64,000 nt of DNA from a virus (taxonomy: Duplodnaviria > Caudoviricetes). Both the position numbers and the translations under genes were made by a program. How positions within the stretch are numbered: the first letter of the stretch is position 1; every line of letters begins with the position of its first letter. Below the pieces are notes generated by a model. The model did not search any database and was not told the DNA's origin. It saw only the letters and a list, made by a program, of their open reading frames with translations. This document shows, piece by piece, positions 10,217 to 56,840 of this stretch. The stretch lies in the IMG/VR virus record IMGVR_UViG_3300013105_000005, positions 1 through 64,000 of that record, one strand, 5' to 3'.

Positions 10217-10693
10217 GTGATGATTGTTGCAACACTTTCCGAAGACGCGACAGCGATCATCAAATTCGGTGGGATCGTCACGGCGGTTGTCGTAATCGTG
10301 CGGGCGTGGCTTTGGATGAGCCAGATAACCAATTCGCTCCAGCGCATTTTTCACCTGCTGCCGACGATGGAACTGCTCCGCAAGCTGGAGCCGCTCGTTG
10401 ACGTGCTAACCGCCGAGTTTAGAAAGAACGGCGGAAGCACATTGGCGGACAAGGTAAACATACTTGCGAACGCAAGCACGATAGCGGCGGAGAAAGCCGA
10501 CAAGGCAGCGATCAAAGCTGAAGAGGCAAAAGCCGCCACGGAAAAACAGAATGAAGTGCTGGAGCATCAGGACCAGGTGATGAAGCATCAGGACGATGTG
10601 CTTGATAATCTGACGGGCAGCGTTGAGGAAATCAAAGGCAAGCTGAATCACCTTGCCTGTCAGACGAACGGTGGATGCCAGCCGCCAAAATAA
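10217..10693 (+). CDS. membrane-anchored coiled-coil protein
   Basis: N-terminal TM then heptad-rich region; GGGAG RBS. Confidence 0.6.
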   Translation: MMIVATLSEDATAIIKFGGIVTAVVVIVRAWLWMSQITNSLQRIFHLLPTMELLRKLEPLVDVLTAEFRKNGGSTLADKVNILANASTIAAEKADKAAIKAEEAKAATEKQNEVLEHQDQVMKHQDDVLDNLTGSVEEIKGKLNHLACQTNGGCQPPK

Positions 10694-10720
10694 AAAGACC
10701 GCCGGGATTAACCGGCGGCC
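10691..10720 (-). terminator. intrinsic terminator for the leftward RAMP-like/array transcript
   Basis: CCGCCGG-GATTAA-CCGGCGG hairpin followed by a T-run on the minus strand. Confidence 0.7.
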
Positions 10721-10815
10721 ACCTTGGATTGGAGGGCAGAGCACAGCTTCGCACCGCGCCGCATTGCCTGAGTAGGGCGCGCCCAGCGATGCATAGCAGC
10801 ACGTCGCTATGCAGC
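10721..10815 (-). repeat. 5-nt periodic array (NN-NGC)n, 19 units; candidate guide RNA
   Basis: 13 of 16 in-phase pentamers from 10736 to 10815 begin with GC on + (end in GC on -); lies between the RAMP-like stop codon and the terminator. Confidence 0.75.
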
Positions 10816-11247
10816 TAATTTCACAGCGTGTTCCTTCCACGACGTGACGACGAACTTTCCGAACGGCCCTTTTCTGCTCGGCCGGAAGTCGCCAAGCCCG
10901 ATCCGCTTTCCGGCAGCATCGACAATCTCGCGTAACAGCTTCGGCCCCATCATGTCGCTGTCCAGTTCAATCGTGAAGCTGATTTGCCAGTCATTGAACA
11001 CCGGACGATGGCAGGCGATGCGACCGCCGGTTGATGGAATGACGACACCACGCGAATCGACCGTCCACGGCTCTTTGTGAATCAGCGGCAGTTCAATGCC
11101 GACGATCCCAACGCAAGCCGGAATCAGCGATGTTTTCTGCGTCGTCACCTTCGACTTGCCAGCCTTGAAGAACGTTCCGGCGTCAATGATGCACCGAAAG
11201 AGATTGGGCGCGGGAATGACTTCGGTCTTTCCGTCCTTCGCGGACAA
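10807..11247 (-). CDS. Cas7/RAMP-like phage protein, probably 5'-truncated
   Basis: VIPAPNLFRCIIDAG helix motif, HRPVFNDWQISFTI, C-terminal G-rich loop IGLGDFRPSRKGPFGKF; in-frame TAG 15 codons upstream of the TTG start. Confidence 0.65.
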   Translation of the reverse strand: MSAKDGKTEVIPAPNLFRCIIDAGTFFKAGKSKVTTQKTSLIPACVGIVGIELPLIHKEPWTVDSRGVVIPSTGGRIACHRPVFNDWQISFTIELDSDMMGPKLLREIVDAAGKRIGLGDFRPSRKGPFGKFVVTSWKEHAVKLAA

Positions 11248-11259
11248 GTAAACCTTCTC

Positions 11260-11610
11260 GTGCGAACTCTTTTTCTGACAAACGTTCGTCGGCTACTTGA
11301 TGATCTCGCTAAGCGAGCAGGTCAATCATCGGCTGCACCCGCCGCTGCCGATCTTCTGTTTCTTATGCGCGATTATGCTCAAACATCGCCAGCCGATCCG
11401 GCCGTTGACGTAGTGATGGGTCTACACGATGCGCTTGCTGCTGATGACCGATGGGTAAATACAACCTCATCTCAGTACAGCGGTGCCTCTGCCGTGCTCG
11501 GGAGACTCCTTGAGCGCGCTAACCCGAATGAATCTCTCATCTCGACCTGCATTGAAGCACTTGAAAACCTCGGACTAGACACTACGCCATTTAGTGCTGT
11601 AGCGAGCTAA
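11260..11610 (+). pseudogene. C-terminal fragment of a helical protein (cargo), 5' end fused head-to-head to the RAMP-like gene
   Basis: Only the 3' part of ORF 11077..11610 looks coding; no RBS; lower GC. Confidence 0.4.
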
Positions 11611-11626
11611 TATCGGAGTTCCGCTC

Positions 11627-12517
11627 GTGGCGGGGAATCCACCGAAATACCTGCTTGATTCATCCGTTGTACGCAGTCTCTTTGCAAGCACAAACGAGAT
11701 GCGGGATTACCTTCGCCACCAACTCAGCGGCGGGAGATGCTATGTGCCGACGTTCGTGCGGATGGAGATACGGCGCAGCTTGATCGCTCCGATCGTAGAT
11801 TTCTACTTCTGCCTTATGGCCCCAAACCGCACCGGCATTGCTGATGCGATGGACCTTTGGAAAAACAAGTTTGCGAAGGGCCATCATATCGCAATTGAAA
11901 CTCTTGTCGCCGCGCTGTTCAGAACCCGAAAACTGGACTTAAATTCACTGCGAGATAAGAAGACGGCGCTTATTGAAATTGGCAGATATCTGCGAAATCT
12001 CGAACGAAAGTTACATGGTTTTGCCAACCCAAGCTTTAGCGATCCTGGACGAGACTCGACACGATGCGCTCGGGCTGAGATTGAGCTCAAAGCAGAGATG
12101 GAATCATTGACGCTGGATCTGCAAAAGTTCCTGGATGCTTTCAATGACACCACGACTTGCTTGAGTAAATGCAGAATCCGTGACTTCATCCTTAGCCGAT
12201 ACAGGCGGGAAGTAGATGCCTACATAACCGCAGCAGCCAAGCTTGCACCGATGCCTGATACAGCCAAGGGATTCGCCGGGGTAGCCAAAAAGCTCAGCGC
12301 CATCATAGAAAAGGGTGGCAAGAACTGCTCATGCAGGATGTGCGGAAGCATCGGTGACGCGATCATTGCGCTTGACGCACCACGCGACATGCAGTTGGAG
12401 CACACCGATTATTCTTTTGACCATCTCTGTCCGCCAATACACCAACCACACCGTTGGCATCAATCTGATTTAGCGCTCAATCGGCAAATAGAGGAGTCGG
12501 CCGCGGAAGGAGGTTGA
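11627..12517 (+). CDS. PIN-domain-like ribonuclease with insertion
   Basis: YLLDSSVV N-terminus; GDAIIAL and HTDYSFDHLC acidic motifs; GGAG RBS. Confidence 0.65.
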   Translation: MAGNPPKYLLDSSVVRSLFASTNEMRDYLRHQLSGGRCYVPTFVRMEIRRSLIAPIVDFYFCLMAPNRTGIADAMDLWKNKFAKGHHIAIETLVAALFRTRKLDLNSLRDKKTALIEIGRYLRNLERKLHGFANPSFSDPGRDSTRCARAEIELKAEMESLTLDLQKFLDAFNDTTTCLSKCRIRDFILSRYRREVDAYITAAAKLAPMPDTAKGFAGVAKKLSAIIEKGGKNCSCRMCGSIGDAIIALDAPRDMQLEHTDYSFDHLCPPIHQPHRWHQSDLALNRQIEESAAEGG

Positions 12518-13327
12518 TTACTCTTCCAAATTGATGCCCACCGCCTCAGCCAGCATGCAGGCTGCTCGATATGCCTCATCGTCGCCGTCCCCGTCGTTGC
12601 AGCGTGTGACGATCGGCGGCTCGGTGCCCGGGCGCAGCACCGCATGGAGTTCGGCTGTATCGTTCACACAAAAAAGCTTGACGATGTAGCCGAGCGATTC
12701 GACCTGGAGGATGATTGCCCGAGTTGTGACATCCAATGTGGGTGCTCTTTCCTTCGAAACTCTTGCCGGCTTCGGTTTTGTCTTTGTTGCTGTCTTTGTC
12801 TCTTTCTTTGGCTCATGCTGAGAACGTTTCTGGCGATTCCGTCCACTGATCCGAATCGACTTTCTCACCGGCATCGGAATCACTTTCATTACCGGCAAAC
12901 GGCCTGGCCGGCGCCGCTGCCGCTTACGTGCGGGGCGTCCTGGCTTCGGCTGCGACCGTCCCTGCACGTCCGGCTCTTCAACGGGCTTGCCGTGCTCATC
13001 GCCGTTGCCGGCCACGCTGCGAGCCGACCGCAGTTCCTCCATCACCCCCCACGTCTTGGCCCTACCGTCCTCGAACTGCATCGCGTGCTGGCCGACGCTC
13101 CGATGGATCACATAGGCGAACAACTCGCCCCGGCTGTTGGCGCTGAACCGGCGATAGAGCGTTTTAACGTAAACGTGAACGGTGTGCTTGCTGATGCCGA
13201 GCTTGTACGCAATCTGCTTCTCGGAATCTCCGCGTAACAGCATCGTGAGCGTTGCAATCAGTCGCGGTGAAAGATGTACGCCGTCGGCGGCGATGCTCGC
13301 CACCTGCTCGAATGCATCCATGCCCAA
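12518..13327 (-). CDS. LuxR-type HTH protein fused to an unrelated C-terminal domain
   Basis: LSPRLIATLTMLLRGDSEKQIAYKLGISKHTVHVYVKTLYRRF. Confidence 0.75.
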   Translation of the reverse strand: MGMDAFEQVASIAADGVHLSPRLIATLTMLLRGDSEKQIAYKLGISKHTVHVYVKTLYRRFSANSRGELFAYVIHRSVGQHAMQFEDGRAKTWGVMEELRSARSVAGNGDEHGKPVEEPDVQGRSQPKPGRPARKRQRRRPGRLPVMKVIPMPVRKSIRISGRNRQKRSQHEPKKETKTATKTKPKPARVSKERAPTLDVTTRAIILQVESLGYIVKLFCVNDTAELHAVLRPGTEPPIVTRCNDGDGDDEAYRAACMLAEAVGINLEE

Positions 13328-13450
13328 TACTCCCAGCCCCTTGCCGATATGTGGACTGCGCAGCCGCCATCCATGACAGCTTTTTCAGCGCAGCACCCAT
13401 TATCTATTACACGGCTTGCACGCCACGAGGGACATTTTTGCAAGAATTAC

Positions 13451-13606
13451 TCACGGCCGGGATTGCGGCGGCGTTTCCATCAACAGCTGATGCTCGGGCG
13501 ACTCCTGGCGGTATTGCTCGTGCTGGCGCTCAAGCCGGAGCCTCAGCGTGTGGTAGCCGCTGGTGATGACCACCATCGCCGCCAGCAGGACGATGAGACC
13601 CCACAT
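13451..13606 (-). CDS. small single-TM protein (51 aa, MWGLIVLLAAMVVITSGY...)
   Basis: Translated by hand; TGATG coupling with the integrase fragment. Confidence 0.55.
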   Translation of the reverse strand: MWGLIVLLAAMVVITSGYHTLRLRLERQHEQYRQESPEHQLLMETPPQSRP

Positions 13607-13899
13607 CAGCCGCGGATGCAATCGACTTCGTTGGTGACGGTGCCATCTGGCCTGCGGTAATAAGTCTCCGCGTGCTTCAGATAGGCGACCATCAGTTCAG
13701 CGACGGTCAGTTCCGACGGCGCAACCAGCGGCCGGCGATCGTTGGCCAGCCATTCGGAGATGAGCCTGTCGTACTGGGCGCGGCTGGCGCGGCTGCCGTG
13801 CGGGCCAAGGTAGTTTTCTTTGCCGTCGATGCAGACCACGGCCTGGCCCGAAGCCTTGTGCTTGCGATACGCGGGATTTCGATGCAACAATCGAGGCAT
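13606..13899 (-). pseudogene. int: tyrosine integrase N-terminal (arm-binding) fragment, no catalytic domain
   Basis: YRKHKASGQAVVCIDGKENYLGPHGS...YDRLISEWLA...LTVAELMVAYL, typical of planctomycete integrase N-termini; stops after 97 aa. Confidence 0.8.
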
Positions 13900-14017
13900 G
13901 TGGCGTCACTCCGGTAGCGCAAACCCGTATGTACGGGTTTGGACTCGGAATATAGCCATCACTCAGCGCACGATGCGCAGGGTTATAAGCAGCTTAAATC
14001 AAATGACTTGAGGGAAA

Positions 14018-14059
14018 TGGGCGATACAGGGCTCGAACCTGTGACCTCAGGTGTGTGAT
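14018..14059 (-). other. 3' half of tRNA-Val(CAC): attP-type attachment core
   Basis: Minus strand: loop ATCACAC, ACCTG, AGGTC, T-arm ACAGG-TTCGAGC-CCTGT, ATCGCCC-A; no 5' half; integrase directly downstream. Confidence 0.8.
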
Positions 14060-14203
14060 ACCGCAATCAGATACGTTTGTCTCCATTCGAGACAATTGTA
14101 TCTAGGCGGGTTTTGTTAAGCAAGAGAAAAATCTTTCGGCATGGAACCGCCTCCCAAGCCGCTGGCGAGCACGACGCCAAAGCCTGTCGTAGCACACGCC
14201 TAA

Positions 14204-51397: not shown

Positions 51398-54123
51398 GCT
51401 GCACCTGCAACTTCCTTGGCGCTTTCGATGGCGCGGCTGGCGGCATCGAAGTTCATCAATGAAATGGTTTCGGCTGAATACCCCAGGTAACGGAGATACT
51501 TGGCCTGCCCCGTCGTACAGCGTTCAGACTTAAGCTTTTCGATTACTGCCGATGCTTGGCGCTTGCTGAATGCGCCGGCGGCTTCACGCTTCACGCCCAG
51601 TTTCACCAGCAACTCAACCTGCTTATCACTCGACCCGCCCGACGTGGCGGCGAACTTCCGCGCCGGCCCGATATCGTGCGGGTCCATCGCGTTAATTTCT
51701 GTCATGTCGTAGCTGGTGGTAGCGACCAACGCGGCGCGCCGTGCGGCTTCGGCGTTTCGCTTCTTCGCTTCCTCGGCAAGCAGTTGCTCGTATTCTTCCT
51801 GCTCGCGCATCGCTTTGACTTGGCGCTCTTCGTCAATCTCAAGTTCCGCCTGCTGTAACGCCGCTTCTACATCGACGGCTTCCTGCTGCGCCAGCAGCTT
51901 GGCCCGCTCGATAACCTGATCGTCGTAGCGTTCATCGCCAAGAATATCGGCGGTCGAAATGAGCTTGTGCCGCCCGGCGTTGCCGACGAAATCCAAAATC
52001 TCACAATTCGAAACTAAGAGACCCTCGACAGTGAAGCGATGGCGGGGTCCGGCGTTAATGATGTCGAATACGCGAGCTTTCCTTTGTATGGGCCTCGCGG
52101 ACGGTGATTCCGAATAATCTGCTCGAAAGATATTCCGCGACCGAGAAGTCTCCTCAAGTGATCGTCCGAGAATCCAGCAAAGGGAAACATCAGTCTGAAT
52201 CTGTGAATCATTGGAGTGATGCGCTTCCCGCGTTGGTTGTTGCACTGGATGGTCCTTGTGGCCCATCGCAGGTTCCCAGGCTCGTAGTGCCTGTTGTTGT
52301 CGATCCGATCGATTTGCATATTGCGGCGCAGGCCGAGATTTACTTGAATCCAAATTGCCATTTCGAGCGGGGAGGCGAAGCGAAATTGAATGCCTCTGCC
52401 CCCGTAATGCGCAAAAACATCCGAGTTTGGATTCACGCATCGATTCTTCGCCAGATTGCATCGCCGGATTAGCCACGGCGGAGCGTTCTGTGGACTGCCG
52501 CATTTGCGACACCCCGCAGTATTTTTTTTCAAGCTTTGTATCTCTTTCAGTTCCTCTTTCCCGCAGAACGTGCATCTTGTCAGCAGAAATGCGCGGGTCG
52601 ATTTCCGTACAATGTTTCCGTTCACAACGATCAGCTTCCCGCACCGCCTGCCCTCCCACTCCGGTAACACAGATGGGAATTTGTTGGGCGGCACACTCCC
52701 CAAACGTCTTCCGCATTTTAAGTGGGGACGATTTACCGGTCTGGTCATAGACGTATACCTCGTGGTCGGGAGTTGCGGTCAATCCCGCGTAATCAATTAC
52801 CCCTTGTTTGCCACGAAATATACTACCACCACAAGATACAAATTCAATCCCATCCCATACAAGCATCTTGTCTGTCACGAATTCGATAGGAACCAATCCG
52901 ACGTTAGTTAAGACTCTTTGTCCCTCAGCGATGCAACTGGGTTTTTGGCTTGATGCGATGAGCGAGCGACGACCGGATGCTTCGGCGATATCCCCAAGCC
53001 GATGCGCAATGGAATCTTGCGGTCGCGTACCACGTCCGGCCATCTGCGCATACAAAGCGCGGCTCTTGGTCGGACGAGCCATAACGACAAGCTCGATGCC
53101 AGGATCATCGAAGCCTTCGGTAGCCACGCCAACATTAACAAGAATGGAAAATCTGTTTTTTGCGTAGTCCGCGAGCATGTCCCGGCGAGTCTGCTTGGCG
53201 GTTTCGCCGCAGACGAACCGCGCGCACCCGTCCACCCAACGATTGAAGATTTCCGCCAGCCGCTCAGCCTGCGCCACCGACACGGTGAACACCAGCGTCT
53301 TGCGCATCTTGCGCCCGGCCATCATCGCGGCGAGTTTTTCCTGCCGTTTATCATCGTCCTTCAACGCCGCAAGAGATCCCGGTTCAAGATTGGCGGCGCG
53401 TTCGATGGTCGCATGGGCGACAGGATGCAGCGACGATTCAAACTCCATGACGGCGGCAAGGTCCGCCTGATTCAAGTCATTACCAACGGTGCGGCACTTG
53501 CTGAAATCCAAGCCAGCCACAGCGACCGAAAACTGTCGAACTGGAACAAGCCAGCCATCGCGGATCGCGGAATGCAGGTCGTAATTGAAGGCAACAGTAT
53601 CAAAGACGCTGCCAAGTCCTTCCCCGTCGCCACGATCGCCAGTCGCCGTCACACCCAAAACGCGAAGATCGGGATTGGTGCGGAAGTGGTCAACCACTCG
53701 CCGGTAACTTGCGGCAACCGAATGATGAGCTTCGTCGATGACCAGCAGCGCGAAGTCGTTGGGATTGAATCGGTGCATGCGCTTGCCATCGTCCAACGAT
53801 GCGTTTTGCGTCTGCACTGACGAGATGATGAAGTTTGCCGCCCAGGGCGAATGCTCCGGAAGTGTTGCCCACTGCGAGGCCATTTCGATATCGACGCCCT
53901 CGCCGGTGACGGCCTTGATCTTGTCGGCGGCTTGGTAAATCAGTTCCTCGCGATGCGCCAGTACCAGCACGCGGCCACGCGATGAAAACTCTTTGGCGAC
54001 GTGGGCAAACACTACCGTCTTGCCGGTGCCCGTCGGCAAGGTCACGATTGTTGATATGCGCCCGCCAGCAAACTCACGATGCACGGCGTCATAGGCGGAC
54101 TGCTGGTAAGGTCGTAGTTTCAT
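51394..54123 (-). CDS. SF2 DEAD/DEAH-like helicase containing an intein
   Basis: LPTGTGKT, IDEAHH, GVTATG, EGFD, QMAGRGTR, LDFVGN. Confidence 0.92.
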   Translation of the reverse strand: MKLRPYQQSAYDAVHREFAGGRISTIVTLPTGTGKTVVFAHVAKEFSSRGRVLVLAHREELIYQAADKIKAVTGEGVDIEMASQWATLPEHSPWAANFIISSVQTQNASLDDGKRMHRFNPNDFALLVIDEAHHSVAASYRRVVDHFRTNPDLRVLGVTATGDRGDGEGLGSVFDTVAFNYDLHSAIRDGWLVPVRQFSVAVAGLDFSKCRTVGNDLNQADLAAVMEFESSLHPVAHATIERAANLEPGSLAALKDDDKRQEKLAAMMAGRKMRKTLVFTVSVAQAERLAEIFNRWVDGCARFVCGETAKQTRRDMLADYAKNRFSILVNVGVATEGFDDPGIELVVMARPTKSRALYAQMAGRGTRPQDSIAHRLGDIAEASGRRSLIASSQKPSCIAEGQRVLTNVGLVPIEFVTDKMLVWDGIEFVSCGGSIFRGKQGVIDYAGLTATPDHEVYVYDQTGKSSPLKMRKTFGECAAQQIPICVTGVGGQAVREADRCERKHCTEIDPRISADKMHVLRERGTERDTKLEKKYCGVSQMRQSTERSAVANPAMQSGEESMRESKLGCFCALRGQRHSISLRLPARNGNLDSSKSRPAPQYANRSDRQQQALRAWEPAMGHKDHPVQQPTREAHHSNDSQIQTDVSLCWILGRSLEETSRSRNIFRADYSESPSARPIQRKARVFDIINAGPRHRFTVEGLLVSNCEILDFVGNAGRHKLISTADILGDERYDDQVIERAKLLAQQEAVDVEAALQQAELEIDEERQVKAMREQEEYEQLLAEEAKKRNAEAARRAALVATTSYDMTEINAMDPHDIGPARKFAATSGGSSDKQVELLVKLGVKREAAGAFSKRQASAVIEKLKSERCTTGQAKYLRYLGYSAETISLMNFDAASRAIESAKEVAGAA
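52006..52935 (-). mobile_element. 310-aa intein (C1...SN|C)
   Basis: CIAEGQRVLT block A, TPDHEV block B, VFDI...FTVEGLLVSN block F/G, +1 Cys. Confidence 0.88.
52014..52748 (-). CDS. HNH homing endonuclease overprinted inside the intein in an alternative frame
   Basis: RCVNPN...YGGRGI...IDRIDNNRHYEPGNLRWAT...NNQR; GAGGT RBS 8 nt upstream. Confidence 0.85.
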   Translation of the reverse strand: MTRPVNRPHLKCGRRLGSVPPNKFPSVLPEWEGRRCGKLIVVNGNIVRKSTRAFLLTRCTFCGKEELKEIQSLKKNTAGCRKCGSPQNAPPWLIRRCNLAKNRCVNPNSDVFAHYGGRGIQFRFASPLEMAIWIQVNLGLRRNMQIDRIDNNRHYEPGNLRWATRTIQCNNQRGKRITPMIHRFRLMFPFAGFSDDHLRRLLGRGISFEQIIRNHRPRGPYKGKLAYSTSLTPDPAIASLSRVS

Positions 54124-55100
54124 GCCGCCCCCTTGCTCGTGCGCATCTCACGCGGCGCGCTGGTGTAGATGGATTCGCAGACCCAGCCCAGCCCCTTGCA
54201 GGCATTGCATTCTTCGCGCTTCGTCGCCTTGCCCTTGCAGTACGGGCAGACCGCGTGCGGCTTGCCGAATCGCACCGCTTCGTATGCGTTATGTACGTCG
54301 GCCTCGAACTGCTGTAGCCGGATGTAGCTGGCGGGAGCGCCGAGATTCTTGATGACTGATTTGACCCGGCGCAGGTCATTCATCGCTTGCTTGAAAACAT
54401 CGCTGGAAGCGAACGCTTCGCGGATGTTGGCGCGATCGGGAAGTGGCTGGTCCAGCATGTCCACTGGCGGCGGTGCCGCTTTCTCGTCGTCTTTGCCATC
54501 AAGAATTTCCTTCGCCTTTTTTGGATTGGTGTCAACTACCTTGGCGGCTTTGATAACCCGATTCTTCGGCGGCGCCTTACCAGCGATGGCTTTATCCCCA
54601 ATTTCCTTGTCAATCTTTTTTACCTTTTCGACCGCTTCGGCAAATTCACCGTCCCTGCGAATCGTCCTTTCTGTCACGCCAAATTCTTCGGCAAGTTTCT
54701 GCGAAGTTTTCAAGTGGACATTTTGTCCACTTGAACTTTTGTCTCTTGCCCCGCCATGCCCTTTACTTGTCTGGTTGTAAATTGAACCCCTGATAATACT
54801 GGCCTGATCCGGCGACAGATTGCGCCGCCCAAGTTGGGTTTTCTTCACCCATATTTCGGCATCATTCCGTTCTGTGAAACTGATTTCCTTGACCCGATAT
54901 CCGATCCCCAGGCGGTCCCCGATTTCCTTCCGGTTGTGGCCGTCCAGAAGGATTCGCTTTTCCTTCCAAACAATCAATGGCGACAGGATTTCCTTGTCGG
55001 CCTTAATATTTTCTTCCAGTGTTGCTCGCTCGTCATCGGTGAGCGGCGGTATCATCGACCGGATATCAACGTCGATGATGATGTTGTCTTCCTTGCCCAT
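54120..55100 (-). CDS. ParB-like N-domain phage protein with C-terminal Zn finger
   Basis: PPLTDDE...LEENI...LLDGHNR...QLGRRNL; CPYC...CNAC. Confidence 0.75.
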   Translation of the reverse strand: MGKEDNIIIDVDIRSMIPPLTDDERATLEENIKADKEILSPLIVWKEKRILLDGHNRKEIGDRLGIGYRVKEISFTERNDAEIWVKKTQLGRRNLSPDQASIIRGSIYNQTSKGHGGARDKSSSGQNVHLKTSQKLAEEFGVTERTIRRDGEFAEAVEKVKKIDKEIGDKAIAGKAPPKNRVIKAAKVVDTNPKKAKEILDGKDDEKAAPPPVDMLDQPLPDRANIREAFASSDVFKQAMNDLRRVKSVIKNLGAPASYIRLQQFEADVHNAYEAVRFGKPHAVCPYCKGKATKREECNACKGLGWVCESIYTSAPREMRTSKGAA

Positions 55101-55814
55101 AACCCGCGCTCCGTCCCGTAGACTTCCTTCCCCCGCCGCGCCATCCCCAACTCACGCCGCGCCTTCCTCAAAAATGTTCACCGCACCGGAGTTTTGGCCT
55201 ACTGCTATGGCGCTCGCGCCGGTCGCCAGCCTAGCTCCATCGTCGGATCAAACCTGCGAACGGCGCTATCCGACGTGTGCGATGAACAGTTCATCGCCTC
55301 ACCTTGGCCTTCCGCGCCACCCGTCCCGCGCCGCCGCACTGGTAGCACGACACCCACGCGCGGCACACATTCACCCAGCCGCTTCCCCGGCACCTCGGAC
55401 ATTTCGCAAGGGCGGGTGGTTTTGTCGCCGTCATGCTCCGCCCTCCAACTGAATCAGCGTTTCCGAATCGCAGTAGATCGTCCCTTCGTGCCCTTCCTCG
55501 CACTTCCACGTATCGCCGCAGTAGGCGTACGGCGGCATTTGCCCTTCGCCGATATCCCCGGTGTCCTGCTGCGAGCACGCCGTCAGGATTTGCACCGGGA
55601 AGCCGCACATGGGGCATTCGTCGTGCGGGTAATCCAGCCACTGCGGGGATGGTTTGGCTGAAGTCATTTGCATCCTCAATTCGTCGTCCACAACACCACC
55701 GCGTTCACATCCATCCCACCGTCCGAGTCTCCAATCGGCCCGCTCCACGTCGTTTTCGGTTCGTACTTCTCAACGCTGATTGCCCCGCCGTCCGGGTCGC
55801 TTGTCCGGCGACGG

Positions 55815-56840
55815 TCATGCGGTTGCTCCGGTTGCGATAAAATCAAACAGTGGTGAATCTGATTCGCCCTTGAGACAATGCGAACTGAACCAAACGCGCT
55901 CCCTGCTCCGGTTCAACTGCGCCTGTGTTTCATCGTCGGCAGTAACCGAATATCCCCCGGCGGTTTTCCACTCATGGACCGCCCAATCGTCTGGCATGAC
56001 GTGCTGGCCTTCGTACCCGCAAAGTGCAATTCGCATCAGCGGGTTTGCGCCGTTGCTGATTGCCCATTCGCGCACGGCGGACGCAATTCCGGTGCAGCGG
56101 TTTCCGCCGACGGCGTAATCAAGCTCTCCCTCACCGTAGGGCGGATCGAGCAACACGCCGGTCATGCCGTGGCGGAAGGTGATGCTTGGCGTCAGTACGC
56201 GCGTCCAATCACCGCAGGCCACGCGAACACGACGGAGCCGGTCGGATAGATCGTGAAGGTAGGCGGCAACACCCTTCCCCGCGTCGCCCAGGTGCGGGAG
56301 TTTCCTATTGACACCCTTCCCCGCGTCGCCCAGGTGCGGGAGTTGGCGATTGATGCCCTGTCCCGCGTTGCGCAGTTCCCAGCCGTTTTCGGTGACGCGC
56401 CATGGTCCTTCTCCTGAACACCACCCCGAACCGATCCAAGCACACGCGCCCCATACCCACCATCCGGCAATCTTGGCGTCGTAGCCTTCTGGCTCAACCA
56501 GCAACTTCCCCAGCTTCTTCGCGCCATCGGTGATGAGCCAGAAGTGGCGGGACTCGAGGTCGCATTCATTCACCGGCCAATCAGCATGAGCCGCAACGGA
56601 GTCCGGGTCAGCTTGGACCGCGCGCCAGAAGTTGCAGATGAATCGGTCGGCGTCGTTGACGGTTTCAATCTTCGGCTCATGCGGCCGCGCCAGCAGGACA
56701 GCGAGCGATCCGCAGAACGGGTCAACAAAGTTGTCAACGTCGCCGAACCGCCGCCAGATTTCTTCCGCGACCCGGCTCTTTCCGCCGAAGTACGGGTATG
56801 GAGATTTCAGTGGCGATGCTGGTGCAGCTTCGGCTCTCAT
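55815..56840 (-). CDS. D12-class DNA adenine methyltransferase
   Basis: YFGGKS, DPFCGS, LDPPY; ATGA-coupled start at 56840. Confidence 0.88.
   Translation of the reverse strand: MRAEAAPASPLKSPYPYFGGKSRVAEEIWRRFGDVDNFVDPFCGSLAVLLARPHEPKIETVNDADRFICNFWRAVQADPDSVAAHADWPVNECDLESRHFWLITDGAKKLGKLLVEPEGYDAKIAGWWVWGACAWIGSGWCSGEGPWRVTENGWELRNAGQGINRQLPHLGDAGKGVNRKLPHLGDAGKGVAAYLHDLSDRLRRVRVACGDWTRVLTPSITFRHGMTGVLLDPPYGEGELDYAVGGNRCTGIASAVREWAISNGANPLMRIALCGYEGQHVMPDDWAVHEWKTAGGYSVTADDETQAQLNRSRERVWFSSHCLKGESDSPLFDFIATGATA
56269..56344. repeat. 42-nt period tandem repeat in methylase (LPHLGDAGKGV twice)
   Basis: Identical 34-nt copies at 56269 and 56311. Confidence 0.85.

Follow-up and report, generated by a model that had tools for sequence, protein, structure and literature searches.

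A damaged VIPR locus in a 76-kb phage, with a 5′-truncated vipr gene and a guide RNA gene predicted to be structurally intact

VIPR systems combine a small Cas7-like protein, Vipr, a minimal RAMP with an RRM core, a thumb and a glycine-rich loop, with a guide RNA (vrRNA) composed of five-base repeats; types I–VII are distinguished, and the system of Escherichia phage SUSP1, classified as type II, comprises Vipr, vap1 and four vrRNAs (bioRxiv 10.64898/2026.04.26.720920 and.720927; PDB 36pp). In the published mechanism, each pentamer is occupied by one protomer, whose thumb and G-loop hold the flipped-out triplet; the NN pairs are matched to DNA, skipping every third base, and transcription is silenced (bioRxiv 10.64898/2026.04.26.720920 and.720927). 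The vrRNA consensus is GGY/NN or one of the forms NNNGG, YNNNG and NNNNG, in arrays of at least 4 and typically 9–16 pentamers (bioRxiv 10.64898/2026.04.26.720920). In VIPR-null phages of Enterobacteriaceae, solo vrRNAs persist after a clean vipr–vap1 deletion, given as 1,114 bp in the Results of the corresponding preprint and as a largest breakpoint class of 1,421–1,423 bp in its Methods; a vrRNA is defined there as solo when no Vipr tblastn match (1e-10) lies within 20 kb (bioRxiv 10.64898/2026.10.15.759431). Preprints of 2026 already cover the VIPR system, its alternative repeat types and phages in which vipr was lost but the guides were kept.

The locus described here lies in a 64,000-nt stretch of viral DNA (hereafter, the window), corresponding to positions 1 to 64,000 of IMG/VR record IMGVR_UViG_3300013105_000005. 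The complete record is a 76,375-bp virus with direct terminal repeats, rated complete, and its host lineage is probably Planctomycetota. An earlier note, made from the window sequence alone, had proposed a Cas7/RAMP-like gene followed by a five-base periodic array and a terminator, and had named VIPR as the likely parallel; that system is in print as the note described it. The locus is a damaged member of the known VIPR family and does not represent a new kind of system. We consider it likely that it is the VIPR locus of a complete 76-kb phage that was disabled by a rearrangement. No interspaced repeat array of the CRISPR type was found in the window, and a single RAMP-like match is present. 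The core of the locus, all on the minus strand, consists of the following features.

10807..11247, minus strand: vipr remnant of 146 aa with a TTG start, matching residues ~54–199 of full-length Vipr relatives
11248..11285, minus strand: right junction zone, in which four extra in-frame codons (KVY-L, to 11259) still match relatives
10736..10815, minus strand: vrRNA repeat tract of 16 pentamers of the form NN-N-G-C, 13 of which end in GC and one in GT
10721..10735, minus strand: last units CCTCC AATCC AAGGT, in which AATCCAAGG at 10730–10722 is the conserved array end of the nearest relatives
10687..10720, minus strand: stem-loop (10720–10697, 9 bp, 8 of them G-C) and T-run (10696–10687)

The 146-aa ORF contains a glycine-rich loop, IGLGDFRPSRKGPFGKF, and its TTG start is preceded at 5 nt by a Shine-Dalgarno-like GAAGG. 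Searches of Pfam and NCBIfam yielded nothing useful for this ORF, with no Pfam match, and PHROGs returned phrog_4652, a family of unknown function, with an E-value of 1e-12 over profile positions 133–190 of 194 only. PDB chain 36pp_D, labeled 'SUSP1 Vipr protein', was matched with an E-value of 1.7e-6 by the single sequence and 1.1e-8 by a nine-sequence profile, and an hhalign comparison of a 40-sequence profile with the SUSP1 protein (from NC_028808) gave a probability of 97%. In the alignment, the thumb arginine R138 of SUSP1 corresponds to R81 of the window protein, and the G-loop residues D177/W178/R179 correspond to D120/F121/R122; all four window residues are invariant in 40 homologs. 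The AlphaFold2 (AF2) model of P0002, the nearest full-length relative (84% identical; pLDDT 80, pTM 0.77), matches chains of Csm3, type VII Cas7, Cmr4 and Cas7-11 with Foldseek E-values of ~1e-6. Given the 36pp_D match, the retained triplet-holding residues and the Cas7/Csm3 fold of the full-length relative, the protein is a genuine homolog of Vipr and its gene is vipr as described in bioRxiv 10.64898/2026.04.26.720920. The Cas7/RAMP likeness that the earlier note had seen in the glycine-rich loop is thereby supported by both a homologous structure and the fold comparison it had proposed. The family comprises 1734 matches, typically ~197 aa in length, distributed over IMG/VR virus contigs and genomes of Planctomycetota, Victivallales, Magnetococcales, Desulfovibrionaceae and others.

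Downstream of the gene, the minus-strand pentamers starting at 10815 read as the earlier note had listed them. From 10815 to 10736, 13 of 16 end in GC in a single phase. When in-phase GC dinucleotides were counted over 16 units across the whole window, this value, at 10736, was the sole maximum for period 5, with counts of at most 9 outside the tract, and the other periods from 3 to 9 reached at most 11; in 200 simulated 64-kb sequences (first-order Markov), the maximum was 7–10 and never exceeded 10. The start of the tract is formed by the last two codons of vipr and its stop codon, likewise in several relatives (Ala-Ala-stop codons). The hairpin and T-run that the earlier note had placed directly after the array were called independently as a minus-strand terminator, with a 9-bp stem at 10720–10697 and a T-run extending to 10687, and relatives carry a hairpin of different sequence at the same place. 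This element would serve as the intrinsic terminator and 3′ tail of the vrRNA. Because the nearest relatives have the same AATCCAAGG tail and terminator hairpin, the periodic tract at 10736–10815 is, judged by its sequence, a structurally intact vrRNA gene of 16–19 NN-N-G-C units. Rfam contained no known RNA matching the tract, and the predicted folds of the repeat tract are unconserved between relatives, the terminal hairpin alone being conserved.

Among the published vrRNA consensus forms, the array falls under YNNNG (C-NNN-G), with 16 units followed by 3 in the tail. The variant triplet proposed earlier is a relaxation of the first G, giving N-G-C, and belongs to a form that the VIPR preprint already lists. 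G occupies the first triplet position in 3 of 19 units, the lowest share in the terminator-tailed group, as compared with 31/75 in the four nearest relatives (p 0.06) and 73/155 in eight relatives (p 0.013). Judged from these counts, the guide may be drifting, or the low share may be just variation.

Homologous loci display the periodicity that the earlier note had expected downstream of the gene. Of 83 homolog loci, 50 have a stretch in which at least 8 of 10 consecutive pentamers are xGY units (G, then C or T, at pentamer positions 4–5) no farther than 200 nt from the vipr stop codon; this holds for 14 of 361 control windows taken from these loci. These arrays contain 10–52 units (median 15) with the composition N, N, G in 62%, G in 92%, and C in 80% or T in 15%, a pattern that follows the published GGY/NN grammar and favors C over T. 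In the nearest relatives, the array ends in (A/C)(A/C)TCCAAGG, followed by a perfect G+C-rich hairpin of locus-specific sequence and a T-run. The combination of this tail with a hairpin of varying sequence is common to L086–L089, L091 and L100, and L088 contains two array–tail–hairpin units in tandem. In this terminator-tailed group, the first G is present in 36–73% of units and position 4 is sometimes C. A different arrangement was observed at L003:4402-4840, and similarly in L009, L010, L044 and L047, where the array ends in GGCAAGGCAAGG, only a few bases ahead of a RusA-like gene (VIELELPYPPS...). In those subclades, the last array units would double as the ribosome-binding site of the RusA-like gene, and vipr is located within a phage replication/recombination module.

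The four nearest relatives (L086–L089, 78–81% identity) carry a 56-aa RHH gene upstream of vipr (L086:5672-5845 and L088:683-853), an arrangement restricted to these 4 of 148 loci; a homolog of this gene is absent from the window phage. In L086 and L088, the spacer between the RHH gene and vipr holds a second pentamer array ending in AAGG, followed by TCGGCACGGG. The RHH gene is a candidate accessory gene and autoregulator of the subclade. The intact module, represented by these four relatives, consists of a promoter/operator, the RHH gene, an upstream vrRNA, vipr, and a downstream vrRNA with a terminator hairpin. Such intact relatives most likely act by the published mechanism, with one Vipr protomer on each pentamer, every third base of the DNA skipped and transcription silenced.

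Compared with this layout, the window gene lacks its 5′ part, as the earlier note had suspected when it placed a loss of about 50 N-terminal residues near 11260–11290. The window protein aligns to full-length relatives (~197 aa) from column 54 only. When the nearest relative was compared with the complete phage genome, a single match was obtained, covering residues 51–199 at 10810–11259 (E 2e-84), and the PHROG profile likewise matched once in the whole phage genome. The first 50–53 vipr residues are absent from both the ORF and the whole phage genome, and no second vipr part was detected there. Homology to relatives is lost upstream of ~11260–11285, and no in-frame start codon precedes the remnant before the next upstream stop.

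The missing part corresponds in the P0002 model to a strand at residues 4–13 and helices at 24–31 and 45–50, that is, RRM core strand 1 and part of the helical bundle (its first two helices). By position, it includes the counterparts of SUSP1 H17 and K33; H17 aligns by eye with the nearly invariant N20 of the relatives (ITGTRPFLSH vs IEGTTPLICN). In SUSP1, H17 reads the first G and the K33A substitution abolishes silencing (VIPR structural preprint). The last strand, the partner of strand 1 in the full-length model, does not form in the model of the 146-aa fragment, and the Foldseek E-value to Csm3 changes from 1e-6 for the full-length model to 1e-2 for the fragment. Among the matches listed, all 120 homologs besides the window's own are longer (163–252 aa, most 187–200). 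The fragment is very probably inactive and would by itself be unable to carry out the published guide mechanism. Of 80 columns conserved to at least 90%, the remaining frame deviates at 4, within the range of 0–5 for intact homologs. As the remaining ORF shows no decay, the event that truncated it was probably recent.

The decay suspected by the earlier note is explained by a 2.8-kb replacement, which occupies the interval between the surviving promoter region and the vipr remnant and contains or adjoins the following features.

14060..14135, minus strand: promoter/operator region of the VIPR module, with TACAAT followed by the inverted repeat GTCTC...GGAGAC (core 14100–14073)
11260..14059, no strand assigned: replacement segment of 2.8 kb, between the promoter/operator and the vipr remnant
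14059–14014, minus strand: 3′ half of a tRNA-Val(CAC), 46 nt, at the left junction, where homology to relatives ends near 14060
13899–13606, minus strand: ORF of 97 aa, beside the tRNA fragment
13327–12518, minus strand: GerE/LuxR-type HTH gene
11627–12517, plus strand: PIN-like gene of 296 aa, unassigned in Pfam; ~130 residues of the predicted protein structure overlap PIN/VapC-type domains
within 11260..14059, plus strand: a small ORF

The TACAAT and GTCTC...GGAGAC motif has a single copy in the phage, which lies 2.8 kb from the remnant on its upstream side and points the same way. L086 and L088 share the motif, followed there by the RHH gene, the upstream vrRNA and vipr; the inverted repeat may be the RHH operator. 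DNA homology of the phage to relatives is confined to vipr and a 43-nt piece of the promoter region, and no close relative of the whole phage was found. Two tandem copies of 42 nt, 93% identical, are present at 56269–56352 and are unrelated to the VIPR locus.

At the left junction, 14059–14014 resembles the 3′ half of tRNA-Val(CAC) genes from genomes of the phylum of L002, with 93% identity over 42 nt; ARAGORN detected no whole tRNA at 14014–14059. The fragment is probably an att site, and it hints at the host lineage. The adjacent 97-aa ORF (13606–13899) has no Pfam or PHROG match and may resemble the N-terminus of a tyrosine integrase. The next gene follows too closely for a catalytic domain to fit in between, so this ORF, too, may be a truncated gene. 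The 296-aa protein has relatives of ~290 aa in Cyanobacteriota and Planctomycetota, and its gene and the GerE/LuxR-type gene (12518–13327) converge at their stop codons with no spacer. On the simplest reading, a foreign 2.8-kb segment tied to the att-like tRNA fragment replaced the RHH gene, the upstream vrRNA and ~50 vipr codons. What remains is a 146-aa Vipr fragment with the thumb arginine and the glycine-rich loop, together with the vrRNA gene. Transcription of the guide is uncertain because two plus-strand genes now separate the old promoter from the remnant, and the 10500–11800 stretch of the minus strand yielded no sigma-70-like promoter.

The earlier note had further suggested that the guide is aimed at competing phages, and for this part no supporting result was obtained. 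Targets were sought by reading the NN pairs with one base skipped, in searches that are much less sensitive than the profile searches of the VIPR preprints. In the phage's own genome and ~150 related loci (0.97 Mb, vipr genes included), no match exceeded those of shuffled guides at skips of 0–2, and a skip of 3 recovered the array itself alone. Three exact 8-unit seeds were searched against IMG/VR and gave matches at chance level, with 23 for units 10–17, none extending past the seed, and 7 for units 6–13, again with no extension. The seed of units 3–10 produced two candidates. L178 agrees with units 3–12 without a mismatch, but the matched pairs fall on codon positions 2 and 3 of a minus-strand ORF. 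In L179, units 2–10 match and the skipped base is the wobble position, but the 74-aa ORF concerned is doubtful. The two were rejected as targets, each covering only about half of the guide (9–10 of 19 units). The 401 genomes searched from the phylum of L002 contained no match over 15 units, even when up to 3 mismatches were allowed.

A further periodic array is located outside the window, on the minus strand at genome positions 72577–72640 (L180 ~1578–1641). It is an unbroken run of 11 NN-GG-H pentamers in a 70-nt gap after a 180-aa ORF; GCAAGG and the start codon (ATG) of a 79-aa ORF come next. Its run score is 11, and no run in 30 simulated genomes scored above 6. In 5 of the 11 units the triplet ends in A, an uncommon feature among vrRNAs. 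This array may be a second, orphan guide. Searches with it found no target and no relatives, and its 180-aa neighbor has no IMG/VR relatives. An NNGGN tract on the minus strand at 55110–55149, just upstream of the ORF at 54120–55100, scored at the level of the simulations and is probably due to chance.

We give an even chance to the reading that the locus is a recent functionless remnant. Because the fragment is very probably inactive alone, the guide could act only with full-length Vipr from another phage or a prophage, or never. By analogy with the solo vrRNAs reported for satellites and VIPR-null phages, the guide might be a de facto solo vrRNA that is loaded on the full-length Vipr of a co-infecting phage or a same-clade prophage and redirects or titrates the rival complex, which we regard as possible although rather doubtful. 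The array register, the AATCCAAGG tail and the terminator hairpin are intact as in the relatives, other phages are documented to have kept solo vrRNAs after losing vipr, with an action shown for some of these RNAs (bioRxiv 10.64898/2026.10.15.759431), and a second GG-periodic array occurs elsewhere in the same phage. Against this, no target was found in the phage, the ~150 loci with their vipr genes, the IMG/VR searches with 8-unit seeds or the 401 genomes; the promoter search over 10500–11800 of the minus strand was negative; few units have G as the first triplet base; and, if the truncation is recent, an intact guide is uninformative about selection.

A function of the 146-aa protein itself, translated from its TTG and forming guide-bound filaments or acting as a capping or poisoning subunit against the Vipr of rivals, appears quite unlikely. 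Its frame is open, conserved sites carry no more changes than in intact homologs, GAAGG stands 5 nt before the TTG, and the thumb and G-loop residues are kept; however, RRM strand 1 and two bundle helices are missing together with the counterparts of H17 and K33, the last strand is lost in the model, and the 120 other homologs listed are all longer. Likewise unlikely is a combination of the two roles, a protein-plus-RNA anti-VIPR module in which the guide is a counter-weapon loaded onto a rival's Vipr and the fragment caps or poisons the rival's filaments. If true, it would place an anti-VIPR module outside the enterobacterial phages in which solo guides were described, perhaps with the 72.6-kb array included. 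That the truncation is an assembly artefact, with the contig chimeric at ~11260 and/or 14060 and the real locus intact, is very improbable: the record is a metagenome-derived virus contig, yet it has direct terminal repeats and is rated complete, it contains no second copy of any vipr part, and the position of the promoter motif, 2.8 kb upstream with its orientation preserved, is more readily explained by a genuine insertion or replacement than by sequences joined at random.

Read as a VIPR locus disabled by rearrangement, the region adds an example from a lineage distant from the characterized E. coli and Pseudomonas systems. Its comparison with the nearest relatives defines a subclade layout of operator, RHH gene, vrRNA, vipr and a vrRNA with a terminator-hairpin tail and a relaxed first G. 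With vipr partly lost and the guide whole, the locus could help date the origin of solo guides, and the natural N-terminal deletion offers a handle on the contribution of strand 1 and the helical bundle.

Among known systems, the Cas7-family RAMPs of class 1 CRISPR (Csm3, Cmr4 and type VII Cas7) share their fold with the full-length relative (Foldseek E 1e-6, TM ~0.5) and also oligomerize on a guide RNA with fixed periodicity; the window differs from them in having no CRISPR array or other cas genes, a period of 5 nt instead of 6 nt, and an identity of only ~10%. The SUSP1 system resembles the window locus in its RAMP fold, thumb arginine, D-(W/F)-R G-loop, tandem pentamer guide beside the gene and constant 3′ tail, and it is likewise phage-borne without cas genes or a CRISPR array. 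The proteins, however, share ~34% identity over the C-terminal third only, the window triplet is N-G-C (the listed YNNNG alternative) instead of G-G-Y, and the window tail is AATCCAAGG with a terminator hairpin, whereas that of SUSP1 is a pseudoknot. In the nearest relatives, the partner is the upstream 56-aa RHH gene and not vap1; in the window phage this gene is missing and vipr is 5′-truncated. The VIPR-null phages have, like the window phage, lost a working vipr and its partner gene while keeping a vrRNA at the old locus, whereas here two thirds of vipr remain, 2.8 kb of foreign DNA stands in place of the lost part, and the phage belongs to another host lineage. By the published definition the window guide is not solo, as the vipr remnant lies directly upstream, and it is orphaned functionally only. 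Specific to this locus are the upstream-RHH subclade, the terminator-hairpin tails, the relaxed first G, the partial, replacement-type loss of vipr and the different host lineage.
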